A stretch of 64,000 bases of DNA. It comes from Oceanispirochaeta sp. Its GTDB lineage: Bacteria; Spirochaetota; Spirochaetia; DSM-2461. The stretch spans positions 480,001 through 544,000 of the forward strand of contig CAXXXD010000001.1 of the NCBI GenBank assembly GCA_963663385.2, in the 5' to 3' direction. Positions 25,960 to 54,021 of the stretch are shown piece after piece. Below the pieces are notes generated by a model. That model was not told where the DNA came from. It searched no databases and saw only the letters and a program-made list of their open reading frames with translations. The position numbers and the translations under genes are program-made. Numbering within the stretch: the first letter of the stretch is position 1; each line of letters starts with the position of its first letter.

Positions 25960-26087
25960 ACTTCCTCCTGTGTTTGGTATTCTGTTAAGGTAAACACCCC
26001 GGCAGGTAAAATGTTACATGTACCGGACTGTCTATCAGAGCATAACACTAATAGAAGGTTGAATCAATTCTGAAGATTCAGACAGAT

Positions 26088-48475: not shown

Positions 48476-50300
48476 GAGAGAAATCAGTGCCTTTGGTGTT
48501 TTCAGTATAGCAGGAGGAGCCATGATCAGCTCCGGGATTTTTATCCTGCCCGGATTGGCTTATTCCATGGTGGGGCCGGGACTGTTTATCTCCTATCTTA
48601 TCGCCGGGTTTCTGGGATTAATCGGTATATTGAGCATGATTGAACTGGCTACAGCTATGCCCAAGGCCGGAGGGGATTATTACTATATCAATAAATCCTT
48701 CGGTCCCATGCTGGGGTCAGTATCAGGCTTTCTGGGATGGTTCGCCCTATCGCTGAAGAGCGCTTTCGCTATCTTCGGTATAACGGAAATCCTGTACCTG
48801 TCAACAGGTTTTCCGCCTCTGTTAAGCGGGGTTATCCTCTGTATCCTGTTTGTTGTTCTTAACATTATAGGTGCGAAAGAAGCCGCCGTATTTCAGATAG
48901 GCATGGTTCTTATGCTGCTGGGGTTGATGATCTTATACATTATAACGGGTCTTCCTCACCTGAACAGAGCGTATTTCGATCTGTCTCAGGGGGGCGATTT
49001 TAATACCCTTTTTATAACATCAGGTTTTATCTTCATTTCCTTTGGAGGATTGCTGAAGGTTGCCAATATTTCAGAAGAGGTGAAAAATCCTAAAAGGAAT
49101 CTCCCCCTGGGTATGATAAGCGCTATTATAGTTGTGACGGTTCTCTATGTTCTCATGATTATCGTTATGACTGGAACGCTGTCTCCCGAACTGTTTAAAA
49201 CCAGTACGACACCTGTAGCGGACTCGGCCAGGATTACTTTGGGGAACCCCGGTTACCTGATTATCCTGGCGGCGTCCACTCTGGCTTTTTTTTCCACAGC
49301 CAATGCGGGAATTATGGCGGCTTCGCGCTATCCCCTGGCCTTGAGCGCAGACAAACTCATACCGCCTTTTATGGGACGCATCAGTTCCCGGACGAAAACC
49401 CCGGTGCCGGCTATCATTATTACAGGAATATTGATTTTTATCGCTCTGCGGCTTCCTCTTGAGAGTCTGGTTAAAGCAGCCTCCACCGTTATTCTAAGTT
49501 CCTATGTGTTAACGAATCTGTCAGTGATTATCTTCAGAGAGAGCAAACTGACTAATTACTCTCCCAGCTACAAAGCCCCTTTATATCCCTGGCTTCAGAT
49601 TTTTTCCGTTTTACTTTTTTCTTTTTTCATAGTTGATATGGGGCTTTCTGCCGTTGAAATCAGTATGTCTCTCTTACTGATCGGTTTCGGCTCTTATGTT
49701 TTCTACGGTAGACATCGTGCCGATAAAGAGTCGGCTTTGATCCACCTCATGAGGCGGATTGCGGATGATCAGCTGGTAAAGGAAAGTTTCGAAGACGACT
49801 TCAGGGAGATTATTATCGACAGGGATAATATCGAACAGGATAATTTTGATCATCTGCTGAAAAAAGCGAAGATTATTGATCTTGAGGGTCATTATGACTA
49901 TCCAACCATGCTTAAGATTGTAGTGAAGGATATAGCCGATGAAGCGGGGATGCCGAAAGAGGAGCTGATAAAGAGGTTTGAGGAAAAACAGAAACGGGAC
50001 AATACGGCGCTGACCCCCTTTCTGGCCGTACCGCATATCATTATTGACGGAAAGGAAAAAATGTTTATGACCGTCGTAAGGGCGAAGGAAGGTGTATGCT
50101 TTACAAAAGAGGAAGACTCGGTAAAGGCTATTTTCCTTATGGGCGGTTCCTCAGATGTCAGAATGCTTCATCTGAAGACGATTGCAGCTATTGCGTCTCT
50201 GGTCATTCAGCCGGATTTTGAAAAGAAATGGCTTGAGATAAAGAATCAGGTGAAGCTGAAAAACCTCCTCCTGATTAACGAAAGGAGAAGGTATTATTGA
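48462..50300 (+). CDS. APC-superfamily permease fused to a C-terminal PTS EIIA (Fru/Ntr-type) domain
   Basis: GAMISSGIFILPG, ELATAMPKAGG, SEEVKNPKRNLP; C-terminal TA....AVPH and HLKTIAAIA. Confidence 0.85.
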   Translation: MAHLKREISAFGVFSIAGGAMISSGIFILPGLAYSMVGPGLFISYLIAGFLGLIGILSMIELATAMPKAGGDYYYINKSFGPMLGSVSGFLGWFALSLKSAFAIFGITEILYLSTGFPPLLSGVILCILFVVLNIIGAKEAAVFQIGMVLMLLGLMILYIITGLPHLNRAYFDLSQGGDFNTLFITSGFIFISFGGLLKVANISEEVKNPKRNLPLGMISAIIVVTVLYVLMIIVMTGTLSPELFKTSTTPVADSARITLGNPGYLIILAASTLAFFSTANAGIMAASRYPLALSADKLIPPFMGRISSRTKTPVPAIIITGILIFIALRLPLESLVKAASTVILSSYVLTNLSVIIFRESKLTNYSPSYKAPLYPWLQIFSVLLFSFFIVDMGLSAVEISMSLLLIGFGSYVFYGRHRADKESALIHLMRRIADDQLVKESFEDDFREIIIDRDNIEQDNFDHLLKKAKIIDLEGHYDYPTMLKIVVKDIADEAGMPKEELIKRFEEKQKRDNTALTPFLAVPHIIIDGKEKMFMTVVRAKEGVCFTKEEDSVKAIFLMGGSSDVRMLHLKTIAAIASLVIQPDFEKKWLEIKNQVKLKNLLLINERRRYY

Positions 50301-50344
50301 TGATATTCTACTTGAATGGGATATAGGTTATCAGACAGAGGATA

Positions 50345-50392
50345 AAAAATCGGAACTCAGATTTTTCATTATGAATCATAGGAGTTCCGATT
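50345..50392. terminator. Hairpin/terminator between convergent genes
   Basis: AATCGGAACTC...GAGTTCCGATT; U-tract on the minus strand. Confidence 0.55.
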
Positions 50393-50415
50393 GGAGGTGG
50401 ACGTATGAACTTTTA

Positions 50416-51273
50416 TTACTGAGTAGATAATTCAGTATTTGTCCCGTTCTGAACTTTCGGGATATGACTGCTTATATTCGTCAGGGCATGCCCATTCTCC
50501 AGTAATGCTGTGGTGATATCCGGATTTGCTGCTTCCAGTCTCCCGACAGCTTTTTTAGCATCAAAAATATAATCCTTTTCTCCGCAAACATATGTCAGAG
50601 GGACTTTGAGGTTTTTCAGTTCCCTGTCAGTAAAAAGGGCCGGATTGTCCATCCGGTACCTGAAATGCCTGGTTAAAAGGACCTGGAATTGAACGACTTC
50701 TTCCGGAACCGGAGCTCCGTCAAACATAATAGACAATAATTTTCTTATTCCCTTTTCCCCCTGTATGGAATAGAAGATGGTTTTTATCAGGAATGATATT
50801 TTCGGCTTTACAATCCCGGTTGGAGCCAGAGCGATGACGCCGGCTGTTTTTTCCGGATAAGTCAGTGCATAGCGGATGACCGCCCACCCCCCAAGGGACA
50901 ACCCTCCCAGTAAAGGTTTATCCAGAGCCAGTCTATTAATGACTTCATCGAGCCATAGACTGAAAGTATCGCCTTTTGTATCAAATCTTACAGCTTCGCT
51001 TTTTCCCGGTTCTCCCGGAATATCTAAACTGTATACCCTGTAGCTCTGACTGAGTTTTTCCATATCTCCCATCCACGCCAGTGAATTGGATCCTGAACCA
51101 TGCAGCAACAGAAGGGGGGGATTTTTTTCCTCTCCTGCCGAAACAATGAATGTAGTGCCGTATTTTGTTTCTATGAAGAAATGCTCAACCAGGGGGAATT
51201 GCTCCAGCATGTTATTGTAAAACCGGAGAATGCAGTCTTTTCCCTTTTCTGTTCTGAAAATCTCTTTGTTCAT
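50416..51273 (-). CDS. Alpha/beta hydrolase
   Basis: LLHG, GLSLGG nucleophile elbow, GEKD, GH. Confidence 0.9.
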   Translation of the reverse strand: MNKEIFRTEKGKDCILRFYNNMLEQFPLVEHFFIETKYGTTFIVSAGEEKNPPLLLLHGSGSNSLAWMGDMEKLSQSYRVYSLDIPGEPGKSEAVRFDTKGDTFSLWLDEVINRLALDKPLLGGLSLGGWAVIRYALTYPEKTAGVIALAPTGIVKPKISFLIKTIFYSIQGEKGIRKLLSIMFDGAPVPEEVVQFQVLLTRHFRYRMDNPALFTDRELKNLKVPLTYVCGEKDYIFDAKKAVGRLEAANPDITTALLENGHALTNISSHIPKVQNGTNTELSTQ

Positions 51274-51332
51274 ATTTCTCTCCTATAAAAAGTCAATCAT
51301 AAGCCTATTAACAAGCTTACAATTGAACCGGA

Positions 51333-52445
51333 TTACCCAGTTTTTACGGCATTGAATGCAGCCGCCTGCATCTTCAAGTACTTATCATCCGGAACCATCT
51401 TCAACGGATCAAAGGGTTCACGGGTTTTCAATATGGAGTACACTACCGTACTCATCTTTCTTGCAGAGGCGATAATACTCGTGCCGCTGCCCTTGTTCTT
51501 CTTCATCGCTCTGTACTTCGTCATGATACGGTAATTGCCAGTCGTTTTCCGAGTTCTAACCATTCCCATAACACACTGAACAAATGCCGTTCTCAGTTCT
51601 ACAGCCCCTCTCTTTGTTATATGCCCATGATGAATCGTCTCATTGGAGTTCTGCACCCATGGTACAAGACCGGCATAAGCCGAATACTTCTTGGCACTGG
51701 CGTACCGCTTGATATCATCCGTATAGGCCCTAATAGTCGATGCCGTTATCAATCCGACTCCCGGGATCGTCTGCAATAACTGTACATCCTCATCTTCCTT
51801 TACAAGTTCCAGCAGGACTTTCTCTAACTGCTTGACCTGGTTCGAAACCTGATCTATCGTAGAAAGCAGCGGTTCTATCGCTTTGGCAGCGCTTCCGAAA
51901 CTCCTATGGTCCACGAGACCGATGAGGATGCGCTGCCTTTCTTTTTTACTCTGCAGCGCAGCTCTTTTTGTTTCAATTCCATACCCTAGAAGCAGTCCGT
52001 GAACCTGATTCTTCAAAGATACGACTGATTTAACAAGGATAGTTCTGGATTTAAGAACTCTACGGATATCCTCACTCTCCTGAGAACAAAGCTGTGATTC
52101 GGGAAGCATATCTTTTTCCAAGAACTCTGCTAGAGTTCTGGCATCATGCTTATCCGTCTTTTTCACTGATTCATTTACAACTTTGAATTTCAGTGTATTC
52201 ACAACCACCACCTCAATCCCTGCTAGCAATAGCTTGTTACGGAAGAACCGGGCATTTCCTGTTGATTCCACTGCAGCCCTAACATCAAGGCCCTCTTCTG
52301 TATAGGACACTGCTTTCTCAAGAAATGCTCTGTAACCGTCCTCAGAGGTCGGATACATTCCTGATTCACAAATGCTTCTATCATCACTCAGGAAACAGAC
52401 TGTTAACTGGGATTTGTGCAGATCCACTCCGATACTCATCTTCAT
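51333..52445 (-). CDS. IS110 recombinase/transposase
   Basis: GVDLHK, VEST, KTDKHDA (DEDD), IPGVG, AYAGLVP..NS..GHITKRG; start re-called to 52445 (or 52439) after ATAGGAG. Confidence 0.95.
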   Translation of the reverse strand: MKMSIGVDLHKSQLTVCFLSDDRSICESGMYPTSEDGYRAFLEKAVSYTEEGLDVRAAVESTGNARFFRNKLLLAGIEVVVVNTLKFKVVNESVKKTDKHDARTLAEFLEKDMLPESQLCSQESEDIRRVLKSRTILVKSVVSLKNQVHGLLLGYGIETKRAALQSKKERQRILIGLVDHRSFGSAAKAIEPLLSTIDQVSNQVKQLEKVLLELVKEDEDVQLLQTIPGVGLITASTIRAYTDDIKRYASAKKYSAYAGLVPWVQNSNETIHHGHITKRGAVELRTAFVQCVMGMVRTRKTTGNYRIMTKYRAMKKNKGSGTSIIASARKMSTVVYSILKTREPFDPLKMVPDDKYLKMQAAAFNAVKTG

Positions 52446-52459
52446 ACCTTCGCTCCTAT

Positions 52460-52645
52460 TGCCTAAAACAGCGCCTGTACGGTGAATTGATTCCATTCTC
52501 CTATCCGGTCTCGAAGACCATTGAATGTTTCGGTCACGGCTCTTCATTCTCCTGTACGGTCTCGGAGACCAGTAAAAATGGCGAACAGTAACCTGGCTGT
52601 TCTAAACGATGTTTAGAACATTGTATCAATCCACAAGCCTATGAA
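52460..52645 (-). ncRNA. Putative IS110 bridge RNA
   Basis: Perfect 10-bp 5' hairpin, then two duplicated stem-loops carrying target- and donor-matching 7-mers; RNA ends are approximate. Confidence 0.7.
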
Positions 52646-52699
52646 GACTTTTTATCATTCCTCCTGTTAATGCCGAATAATTCTGGTAGGGGGCATTTC

Positions 52700-53155
52700 C
52701 TATTCATTGGAATTGTCCTGCTTCAATAGCTGATCAATTATCAGCAGCAATCTGCTTACCAGCTGGGGAGATCCGTGAAATATAATTTTCCCCTTCAGCT
52801 CTTCTTCAAAATACATAAAATCAAATCTGCCTTGACCGTCTTCCGGGAGTTTAGAGTTCATTACTGCATTTATAGTATTGGAAATTCTCATAGCCTGATC
52901 CTTTCCTCCAATAAAACAATCAATAACCGCTGTTGTAAGAGGGGACTCCCTGATTTCAGAACTCTCCGGTGTATATTGTGGTGATTCCCTGATCTCTTCA
53001 CCTGTATACACGCTTAAATCGTGTCCGCTTATCCTGTAACTTCTACCGACTTTTGTTGCCGTTAATTTGCCCTCCCGTATAAAACGCTGGACTGTTTTTT
53101 CATGAAGTTGCAGCAGTTCTGCTGCCTGTGCAACTGTATACCAGACTTCTTTCAT
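52700..53155 (-). CDS. Excisionase-like (HTH_17) DNA-binding protein
   Basis: YTVAQAAELLQLHEKTVQRFIREGKL.A.KVGRSYRI. Confidence 0.85.
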   Translation of the reverse strand: MKEVWYTVAQAAELLQLHEKTVQRFIREGKLTATKVGRSYRISGHDLSVYTGEEIRESPQYTPESSEIRESPLTTAVIDCFIGGKDQAMRISNTINAVMNSKLPEDGQGRFDFMYFEEELKGKIIFHGSPQLVSRLLLIIDQLLKQDNSNE

Positions 53156-53188
53156 TCCTTAAAACTCCTTAATGAGTTGCGATAAGTA

Positions 53189-53217
53189 ACATTAGGATGC
53201 ATTAGCCTTCTTGTCAA
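53189..53217 (-). promoter_or_regulatory. Sigma70 promoter of the HTH gene
   Basis: TTGACA, 17 bp, TAATGT. Confidence 0.6.
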
Positions 53218-53355
53218 GAAGTTTTGGGGAATCTTTTGGGGGAAATGAAAAATAATACCTGTTGTTTGTATCAAATCATTTGATCGGGTTTATTGATCAT
53301 CTGAGGGGTTAGGCAAACAACGGATCTGAGGTATTTCTTATGTGAGGAATTCGGA

Positions 53356-54021
53356 CTATCGTATCAGATGCCGGGTATATCCGGCATCAATAAGCAGCTT
53401 ATAGGCATTAAATACCCTGTCCGGAACATCCTGGACGGTCTGAAAACCAAGGGACGGGTATTCAATTATCCTCTGTAAATCTCCTGTCATTAAATGGATC
53501 AGTTCATCCCGGCTTATTTCATCATTCGGATACTCATCGAAGCTCAGGGGAGGGGATGTAACAATCAGCTCCTTCTCCGGCCAGTGTATTTTAATGGTGG
53601 CATAGGCCCGACGTTCCATATAGGGTTTCTGAACGGCCAGTATTCTGTGATGGGGAATTCCCCTCTCTTTCAGGATCTTTTCGGAAAGCAGAACATTCTC
53701 TCCTGTATTCTGAGCGTGGCATTCAAGGATCATCTTCTTCCGGGGAACTCCTGCGGCTGCGGCCCTGTCCGCAAACATCTCCGCTTCACTTTTCCTCCAG
53801 CCTGTCTCCAGTAAATCTCCGTGATGGGCCTCTCCCCCGGAAAACAGTATCCGGGGAGCCAGCCCGTTCAGGAACAGGGAGGCCCCATAATCCGCGACTC
53901 TCAGGTCATGGCTGCACAGTACAAAAATCAGGTCGGCATTTTCTATCGTATGATTTATATGGTGGTAATCCCAGAGAGTCCAGGCGGCTGCTTCAATTTT
54001 CATATCTTGTCTTTCTTTCAT
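53356..54021 (-). CDS. YdcF/DUF218 family protein
   Basis: SGG, SEAE.FA, E..AQNTGEN, VQKPYMERRAYAT. Confidence 0.88.
   Translation of the reverse strand: MKERQDMKIEAAAWTLWDYHHINHTIENADLIFVLCSHDLRVADYGASLFLNGLAPRILFSGGEAHHGDLLETGWRKSEAEMFADRAAAAGVPRKKMILECHAQNTGENVLLSEKILKERGIPHHRILAVQKPYMERRAYATIKIHWPEKELIVTSPPLSFDEYPNDEISRDELIHLMTGDLQRIIEYPSLGFQTVQDVPDRVFNAYKLLIDAGYTRHLIR

Follow-up and report, generated by a model that had tools for sequence, protein, structure and literature searches.

An insertion sequence of the IS110 family lies within the Shine-Dalgarno (SD) sequence of an alpha/beta hydrolase gene in the stretch of Oceanispirochaeta sp. DNA analysed here (64,000 nucleotides, positions 480,001 to 544,000 of contig CAXXXD010000001.1; hereafter the window). 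In this study, we found that all copies of this element in the genome occupy one type of site, an SD followed a few bases later by ATG, that its long left end has a conserved two-loop RNA structure whose variable bases change together with bases flanking the insertions, and that the SD left in front of the downstream gene is borne by the element. Our reading is that the element moves by bridge-RNA-guided recombination with an RNA programmed for translation start regions, and from these comparisons of sequences we put its probability at about 80%. Beyond this single element, we see roughly even odds that a deep clade of the IS110 family, with members labelled as several phyla, carries a bridge RNA hard-wired to the universal translation start signal, with one guide for the SD, another for the start codon across a variable gap, and a donor end which delivers a canonical SD. 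That the family uses guide RNAs is established: bridge RNAs have been described for IS110 elements (Durrant et al. 2024, PMC11208160; Hiraizumi et al. 2024, PMC11208158), and seekRNAs for IS1111 and IS110 elements (Siddiquee et al. 2024, PMC11187229).

Site preference and borders of the element

The genome contains ten copies of the element, 99.6-100% identical, and similarity begins and ends at the same bases in all of them. Each copy lies between NNAGGAG and AGGAG followed by 6-8 A/T-rich nt and ATG, and each is co-oriented with the gene behind it, the open reading frames (ORFs) there being 98-689 amino acids (aa) long. The left flank is ACAGGAG in eight copies, GCAGGAG in one, and AAAGGAG in one. 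This heptamer is common: it occurs 1,462 times in the genome, 1,454 times unoccupied. A start codon 4-10 nt downstream of the site and an ORF of at least 60 aa are found at 176 of the 1,454 unoccupied sites (12%), and the chance that eight ACAGGAG copies would all stand in such a context is 0.121^8 = 5e-8. In the window itself, ACAGGAG occurs 19 times as compared to 7.4 expected from shuffles (0/100 shuffles reach 19), and two of the 19 belong to the element, namely the guide at 52549 and the junction at 52661.

The same preference is seen in related elements. With the recombinase as query, scans of species-representative genomes and of metagenomes gave 156 loci with 32-79% amino-acid identity, which after removal of truncated loci and duplicates represent 101 distinct insertions. 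An ATG is present within the 22-nt right flank in 99 of the 101, and at a distance of 4-9 nt in 93; the spacer between AGGAG and ATG is 5, 6, 7, or 8 nt in 16, 52, 12, and 9 sites, respectively (89/101 in total; mode 6). The two without ATG are L061, which has an aberrant guide, and L158, which has a possible TTG start at 6 nt. The proposal of the initial annotation that the element targets ribosome-binding sites (RBSs) is thus upheld by the ten copies, with AGGAG 6-8 nt before ATG, and by these relatives; neither different ends nor a lack of preference for AGGAG was found across the copies.

In the window copy, the left junction reads ..attaAC-AGGAG-gaatgataaaaag on the minus strand (AGGAG at 52665..52661), and the right junction ..gactttttat-AGGAG-agaaat-ATG (AGGAG at 51284..51280, ATG at 51273..51271). 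Both agree with the earlier reading of that strand, as does the retention by the hydrolase gene of an AGGAG at unchanged spacing. The element opens with GAATGATAAAAAG and consists of 215 nt of non-coding sequence, a 370-aa ORF (52445..51333), and 48 nt up to the AGGAG which end in TTGACTTTTTAT, a sequence conserved in relatives. When the 1,381 bp are taken out, attaacAGGAGagaaatATG is restored, and such an empty site was found: a contig from run X6 passes directly from 51279 to 52661, leaves out 1,381 bases (five letters are ambiguous), and reads ..AACAGGAG-AGAAATATG. Its support is thin (one contig of 1,027 nt, depth 2, with 32 nt on the short side), and the element is present in three of the four public runs whose contigs were placed on 50400-53200. 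The orthologues of the hydrolase gene and of the upstream helix-turn-helix (HTH) gene are adjacent in G017, a genome from the same family but another genus (70-74% identity), where the gap between them is ~45 nt and ends AAGGAGG-8 nt-ATG. The claim that removal of the element restores the hydrolase RBS behind the HTH gene is in line with both the X6 contig and G017. The HTH-hydrolase flanks had no match in ten same-genus genomes, and G017 was the only syntenic relative.

Only 4 of the 10 copies have a co-oriented ORF upstream which ends no more than 65 nt away. In the other six, the nearest co-oriented upstream ORF is more than 100 nt away or absent, and therefore the element may separate genes from promoters. 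The HTH gene upstream of the window copy is of the excisionase type (TIGR01764, HTH_17), and its orthologue adjoins the hydrolase in G017 too; it is not part of the element, because the other nine copies have different neighbours. The left junction also forms AGGAGG-A-ATG with a 10-codon ORF running into the bridge RNA region (52628-52667, minus strand), which is probably not functional since the ATG is lost in relatives whose left end opens with GCACG.

The left-end RNA and its proposed guides

The left end of the window copy folds better than all of 200 shuffles (z -4.1). The consensus structure, computed with RNAalifold from an alignment of 23 distinct left ends, has a hairpin at its 5' side, the long-range stem GUGGAU/AUUCAC, a target module (basal stem, internal loop, apical hairpin), and a second apical hairpin, and the strands beside the hairpins are unpaired (Table 1). 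Its 29 pairs are formed in 95.6% of the alignment cells, as opposed to 19-44% with partners slid; 11 pairs show compensatory changes, and the covariation score was reached by 0/500 shuffles. The centroid fold has the two palindromic hairpins pair with each other; we rejected this, for types with AGCC/GGCU in hairpin 1 and GACC/GGUC in hairpin 2 can pair only locally. A search of 50000-54000 with Rfam 15 at E up to 1 gave only two chance eukaryotic matches and no bridge RNA family.

In IS621, the left guide binds by base pairing to the DNA's bottom strand and the right guide to the top strand, and both include the core (PMC11208160, PMC11208158). Here, each of the two loops runs from the right guide through the hairpin to the left guide. 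The variable bases of the left target guide match the flanking bases at -7 and -6 in 17/20 and 20/20 types (expected 8.4 and 11.7), a match sum reached by 0/10,000 shuffles; three of the 23 types had been dropped because their left flank was too short. Extension to -8 gave no signal (6/20 matches, 5.5 expected). An unbiased scan of each flank position against each RNA column, covering 56 RNA types and 81 sites, recovered the left target guide positions (z 9.1 and 9.6) as well as the pairing of the donor strand CAUUC with GAATG at the element's left end, where LE2 covaries with position 137 (z 9.4, 56/56) and LE4 with position 135 (z 7.3, 55/56). Types whose left end opens with GCACG, GCATG, or GTATG mostly carry the guides CGUGC, CAUGC, or CAUAC, respectively, L036 and L057 being the exceptions. 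The left donor guide AUAGGAG is present in 23/23 types.

The same scan found the expected column for the base three before the ATG (z 3.6). The right target guide strand is 5'-CAU plus 7 nt in 22/23 types, and its reverse complement, N7-ATG, was anchored on the first ATG of each target. Compared with shuffled pairings in 20 types, the match before the ATG has P = 0.005 for -3 to -1 and P = 0.0004 for -5 to -1. With 50 types and 97 sites, covariation of the guide with the base triplet preceding the ATG has z values of 3.3, 4.1, and 2.7 (sum z 5.8; 0/5,000 shuffles), and this signal is seen separately in each of the spacer classes 5, 6, 7, and 8, while covariation is absent at positions -7 to -4. 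The CAU is invariant and therefore cannot covary. A contiguous, core-anchored right guide like that of IS621 was also tried and rejected, with total z <=1.4 at offsets -3 to +2; its peaks at offset -1 coincide with the ATG register of the 6-nt spacers. Host base composition is argued against as the cause, since the signal is anchored on the ATG, occurs in every spacer class and has no core register. We infer that NNN-ATG is the pairing partner of the right guide and that its distance from the crossover can vary by a few bases, and this is the least secure part of our reading.

The window guide predicts AAA-ATG, which allows a test within the genome, where host composition does not confound. 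Sites were classed by their matches to the two variable left-guide bases and the three right-guide bases. With both left bases matched, the occupied sites were 2 of 7 at three right matches, 5 of 43 at two, 1 of 74 at one, and 0 of 77 at none; with one left and three right bases matched they were 2 of 50, and in every other class 0 of 1,722. Sites with four or five of the five variable positions matched were thus occupied in 9 of 100 cases, against 1 of 1,873 others (Fisher P = 1.5e-11). Five full-match sites elsewhere in the genome are empty, three of which precede ORFs of 128-553 aa. AAAAATG stands at 4 of the 10 occupied sites as compared to 2.9% of 1,154 other AGGAG-ATG sites (P = 1e-4), and the AT fraction of the spacer is 0.89 at occupied and 0.65 at other AGGAG-ATG sites. 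The site at 25965-71, named in the initial annotation as a possible unused target, is a genuine ACAGGAG RBS and reads ACAGGAG-GAAGT-ATG, but with AGT before the ATG it falls into the class with 1 of 74 occupied and is, by these counts, a poor target.

On the proposed mechanism, the 215-nt left end would encode a two-loop RNA. The 3' strand of the target loop, with AC-AGGAG, would pair with the bottom strand of NN-AGGAG, and the 5' strand, 5'-CAU-UUU.., with the AAA-ATG top strand slightly further downstream, the gap between the two readings not being fixed, as all spacers from 5 to 8 nt occur. The AUAGGAG of the donor loop matches the last bases of the element, and its CAUUC would pair with the element's first five, GAATG. 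The initial annotation mentions neither such an RNA nor a reading of the start codon region. Strand exchange at the AG which ends AGGAG would then leave the host NNAGG-AG on the left and place the element's TATAGG-AG before the unchanged spacer and ATG, so that the downstream gene would keep a canonical SD at the same spacing.

An additional module resembling the donor loop, a hairpin (GGUCUCGUGGACC) followed by AUAGGAG, lies inside the transposase ORF at 51899-51928 on the minus strand. It is 77-78% complementary to both guide modules, and the coding hairpin keeps its pairing in relatives through compensatory changes (GGTC/GACC, GTGC/GCAC, GTTC/GAAC). It may reflect a constraint at the RNA level or a regulatory pairing with the bridge RNA.

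Table 1. Features of the insertion locus and of the putative bridge RNA (window positions)
Feature	Positions	Strand	Evidence or remark
Upstream host gene, HTH_17 / excisionase-type DNA-binding protein, 151 aa	52700..53155	minus	stop 34 nt before AGGAG
Host-derived left target ACAGGAG, original SD; final AG is the presumed crossover core	52661..52667	minus	flank bases -7 and -6 covary with guide
IS110-family insertion sequence, 1,381 bp counting the right-hand AGGAG	51280..52660	minus	10 near-identical copies; exactly 1,381 bases missing from empty-site contig
Left subterminal inverted repeat ATAAAAAGTC	52646..52655	minus	10/10 complementary; GATAAAA invariant in 23 types
Putative bridge RNA core, closed by GUGGAU (52634..52629) / AUUCAC (52487..52482)	52482..52634	minus	covariation
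5' stem-loop of the non-coding RNA, 10-bp stem	52598..52620	minus	
Target loop 5' strand CAUUUUUACU, putative right target guide; CAU-UUU complementary to AAA-ATG	52571..52580	minus	ATG-anchored covariation, -3 to -1
Target loop apical hairpin 1	52558..52570	minus	helix 4, compensatory GC to AU, UA to CG
Target loop 3' strand GU-ACAGGAG, putative left target guide, sequence of target top strand	52549..52557	minus	
Putative right donor guide CAUUC, complementary to the element's first five bases GAATG	52523..52527	minus	
Donor loop apical hairpin 2	52507..52519	minus	helix 5, GC to AU 11/23, CG to UA 9/23
Putative left donor guide GG-AUAGGAG, same sequence as the element's last bases TATAGGAG	52498..52506	minus	invariant 23/23
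Transposase/recombinase gene, 370 aa, from ATG after GGAG	51333..52445	minus	domain and NCBIfam matches
Right-end hairpin followed by CUUUUUAU, weak terminator-like (3 G-C pairs)	51293..51326	minus	hairpin at same place in relatives
Right subterminal inverted repeat GACTTTTTAT (51294..51285) and overlapping -35-like TTGACT (51296..51291)	51285..51296	minus	
Rebuilt SD AGGAG (AGG from element, AG core), host spacer AGAAAT and hydrolase ATG	51271..51284	minus	
Downstream host gene, alpha/beta hydrolase, 285 aa	50416..51273	minus	
Unoccupied ACAGGAG SD, 5 nt before ATG of a 343-aa ORF	25965..25971	minus	left guide full match, right guide 1/3

Origin of the rebuilt Shine-Dalgarno sequence and alternative explanations

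A regular expression located both ends in 125 elements, and in 121 of them the right end finishes with the five bases AGGAG. An identical AGGAG at both junctions is counted in the window and in 114 of the 125, which is what an ordinary 5-bp target-site duplication by staggered cuts, with an element lacking an SD of its own, would produce. However, 15 rows differ between left and right. Three of the 15 are false matches of the expression (L029, L039, and L156), and in ten others (L040, L046, L061, L073, L085, L127, L152, L155, L157, and L158, of which L152 and L155 are possibly one site counted twice) the left copy deviates at -5, -4, or -3, reading TGGAG, CGGAG, AAGAG, AGAAG, or TAGAG, beside AGGAG on the right. 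Furthermore, the ATAGGAG of the right end is mirrored by the invariant AUAGGAG of the donor loop, and IS110-family elements make no duplications, as stated for IS900 (PMC8141618). We therefore reject a target-site duplication, which is hardly credible with these deviant left copies. Because the right copy is AGGAG despite deviant host copies, the AGG of the SD before the gene comes from the element, and the "rebuilding" of the SD asserted in the initial annotation is literally true; in these ten insertions, as judged from their junctions, a weaker host SD is swapped for a canonical one. In the two remaining rows (L027 and L159) the right copy is AGGGG and the left AGGAG, a difference at -2. 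Position -1 is the same on both sides in all 12 true rows, which fits a dinucleotide core AG. The second base of the IS621 core is described as almost invariant, and the first as less so (PMC11208158).

The ends suggest a further feature of the excised form. The left subterminal repeat overlaps a -10-like TAAAAA (52654..52649), which is preceded by TG (52657..52656). A circle would place AGGAG-GAATG (ten bases) between the 10-bp repeats GACTTTTTAT and ATAAAAAGTC, and in the predicted circle TTGACT would stand 17 nt from TG-n-TAAAAA, both boxes being conserved in relatives. It is thus conceivable that a promoter forms at the circle junction, as with IS621, in which the -35 lies in the right end and the -10 in the left end, 17 nt apart (PMC11208160, PMC11208158). 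For the integrated form, a promoter scan of 51100-53400 gave no promoter-like site on the minus strand which would lead outward into the host gene, and the weak terminator-like hairpin of the right end stands directly before the rebuilt SD.

The site preference might in principle arise with less guidance than we propose. If only the left guide selects, through NN-AGGAG, the restriction to gene starts would result from purifying selection, and the CAU would be structural. In favour of this, long ORFs contain 1,126 of the 1,278 non-SD ACAGGAG sites, the predicted partner of the CA in CAU is the UG of a conserved AAUG, and the use of ATG at the targets is not significantly over background. But none of the 152 ACAGGAG sites which are neither SD-like nor in a long ORF is occupied, and thus the left heptamer alone fails to explain the pattern. 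Moreover, occupancy among SD-ATG sites tracks the triplet before the ATG and A-rich spacers, and the covariation of guide and triplet is anchored on the ATG at -3 to -1 in all spacer classes, which neither composition nor selection would give. On balance, selection by the left guide only seems unlikely to us. A recombinase protein or a host factor at start sites, e.g. an initiating ribosome, might also select the sites instead of RNA-DNA pairing. AGGAG and ATG are invariant and hence beyond covariation testing, and a protein could read them. This is nevertheless a very improbable explanation, as the variable bases on both sides covary with RNA positions right beside AGGAG and CAU, and the family is known to be RNA-guided (PMC11208160, PMC11187229).

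Several points weigh against guidance by both strands of the target loop as we propose it. The signal of the right guide is statistical and moderate, and individual sites often match only one or two of the three bases before the ATG. There is no covariation next to the core, where the right guide of IS621 pairs (core and adjoining bases), and we know of no precedent for a right guide at a variable distance. The CAU could be structural instead of a guide: RNAalifold pairs its CA with the UG of the AAUG, and those pairs never vary. Start-codon usage gives no proof that the ATG is read, for 10/10 ATG is no significant excess over a roughly estimated background of ~81% (P = 0.12). Part of the 10/10 pattern must stem from selection against insertions within genes, and the geometry of IS621 may not transfer to this element, since the guide order is reversed in both loops.

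Related elements and comparison with known systems

The loci found with the recombinase carry the labels Spirochaetia, Treponema, Leptospira, Desulfobacterales, Dehalococcoidales, Dysgonomonadaceae, and Lentisphaeria, together with two candidate-phylum metagenome-assembled genomes (MAGs), although some of these labels may be binning errors, as several loci sit on short contigs. Copies with the same ends are found on 1.7-2.7-kb contigs binned as Gracilibacteria and WWE3 (L030 and L034), which may be mis-binning or real spread into very different hosts. In a distant subclade (L067-L085; Lentisphaeria, Victivallales, and rumen MAGs) with 32-35% recombinase identity, the ends differ (left ATGGTATGATAAATA, right TTTATCATAGGAG) and the elements sit between xxAAGGAG and AGGAG plus 5-9 nt plus ATG; one of its genomes, a Lentisphaeria MAG, carries 12 or more copies. 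Since this subclade shows the same site type, homing to SD-ATG appears to be ancient within this branch. A copy in the same site type, annotated merely "IS110 family transposase", is also present on plasmid pSpe of Thiospirochaeta perfilievii, a cultured carrier which offers an experimental handle.

In one Spirochaetia MAG with 15 copies (L011-L024 and L029), nine of the 15 left flanks end in TTATAGGAG, which resembles the element's own right end, not its left guide (UUUAGGAG). Directly upstream of L015, L016, and L022 there is a mini remnant of 108-143 nt consisting of a left end plus a right end, and in L039 the right end is duplicated. It seems that the rebuilt SD is reused as a target, giving tandem or nested copies.

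The recombinase matches DEDD_Tnp_IS110 (PF01548, 8.7e-21) in its N-terminal and Transposase_20 (PF02371, 4.6e-19) in its C-terminal part and scores 228 bits against NF033542 "IS110 family RNA-guided transposase" (cut-off 140), so that by domain match it has the RuvC-like DEDD and Tnp domains of the IS110 family. Its insertion likewise follows the family, being sequence-specific, in one orientation (10/10 copies in one site type) and lacking both terminal inverted repeats and a target duplication, and the structured non-coding end has, by sequence, loops matching target and donor. With an RNA in a long left end (215 nt) and a short right end (48 nt) it resembles the IS110 group, for which this is a criterion (PMC11208160). 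It departs from that group in its perfect subterminal inverted repeat of 10 bp instead of 2-3 bp, and in both loops, which run opposite to the group order of bottom-strand match, then top-strand complement (PMC11187229, PMC11208158). The target is of the IS900 type, an SD and a start codon ~6 nt apart (spacer 5-8 nt in 89/101), whereas an antisense insertion splitting SD and ATG is not found here, the element being co-oriented and the SD restored at the same spacing. From these features the element appears to be an active-looking IS110-family bridge-RNA element of an IS900-like target class, with guides legible in its sequence and an RNA layout which differs from the bridge-RNA models studied so far.

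Subterminal inverted repeats of the IS1111 group are long, 7-17 bp (PMC11208160), and our element resembles this group (ISEc11 and others) in its repeats and in having the top-strand complement first in the guide. Unlike in the IS1111 group, its RNA lies upstream in the long left end, an IS110-group trait. With IS621 it shares a recombinase with DEDD/RuvC-like and Tnp domains, a long left end with a two-loop RNA and a short right end, one loop which matches the target and another which matches the joined element ends, left guides with top-strand sequence and right guides complementary to the top strand, a presumed dinucleotide core, and a -35-like right end and -10-like left end 17 nt apart in the predicted circle. 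In contrast to IS621, with its left guide, stem-loop, and right guide, the order here is right guide, hairpin, and left guide in both loops, and a long-range stem closes the donor loop, with the 5' hairpin and the target loop inside this stem. Common to the left target and the left donor are five bases here (AGGAG), not just the core, the putative right target guide shows covariation with bases whose distance from the core varies between 3 and 8 nt, and the subterminal repeats have 10 bp instead of 2-3 bp. Whereas the natural target sites of IS621 are REP elements, the targets here are SD-ATG. According to a 2026 preprint, departures from the structure of IS621 are seen in many bridge RNA models; its section on this (2.4) says nothing of start signals.

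The literature searched gave no account of a bridge or seek RNA which targets RBSs, although the supplementary target tables of PMC11208160 and PMC11187229 might list such motifs, and the papers searched likewise did not mention co-orientation, regeneration of the SD, or a reversed order of guides. If the clade-wide reading is true, the element could sit before hundreds of genes in any SD-using host without removing the RBS, a weaker SD would become a canonical one, and this would be the first natural bridge RNA with a discontinuous, flexibly spaced right guide and an order reversed with respect to IS621. It would be a design from nature whose target and donor have more than the core in common, with regeneration of a host signal as the result, and may provide a built-in way of limiting harm and of fixing the orientation of the element relative to host transcription, to the benefit of element or host. 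For the engineering of bridge recombinases, the reversed order, the nested donor loop, and the apparent action of the right guide at a variable distance are three testable departures from IS621 which bear on how rigid the synaptic geometry is, and for genome annotation, copies of this clade mark true gene starts.

Also close in target choice are IS900 (Doran 1997) and IS901 (Inglis 2003) of Mycobacterium avium, which are described as inserting between SD and start codon (cited in PMC2942039); the target motif of IS900 in element orientation, CATGNNNNNNTCTCCTT, is SD-N6-ATG on the opposite strand (PMC8141618). Likened by motif, not by protein sequence, these elements share with ours the IS110 family, the lack of target duplication, and a target of SD, 6 nt, and ATG. 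By its motif, however, IS900 is antisense to the targeted gene and splits the SD from the ATG, whereas here the element is co-oriented, the cut is at the 3' end of the SD, and AGGAG is restored at unchanged spacing. Going by the title of the 1997 report of Doran et al., the IS900 insertion is said to serve the expression of an antisense ORF, hed. No bridge-RNA account of IS900 targeting was found in the literature searched. Thus, targeting of translation initiation signals by the IS110 family is already known, while the SD-rebuilding version and the guide layout look undescribed, and the putative guide bases pinpointed here for SD and ATG link the old, unexplained homing of IS900 and IS901 to SD-ATG with a bridge-RNA mechanism.

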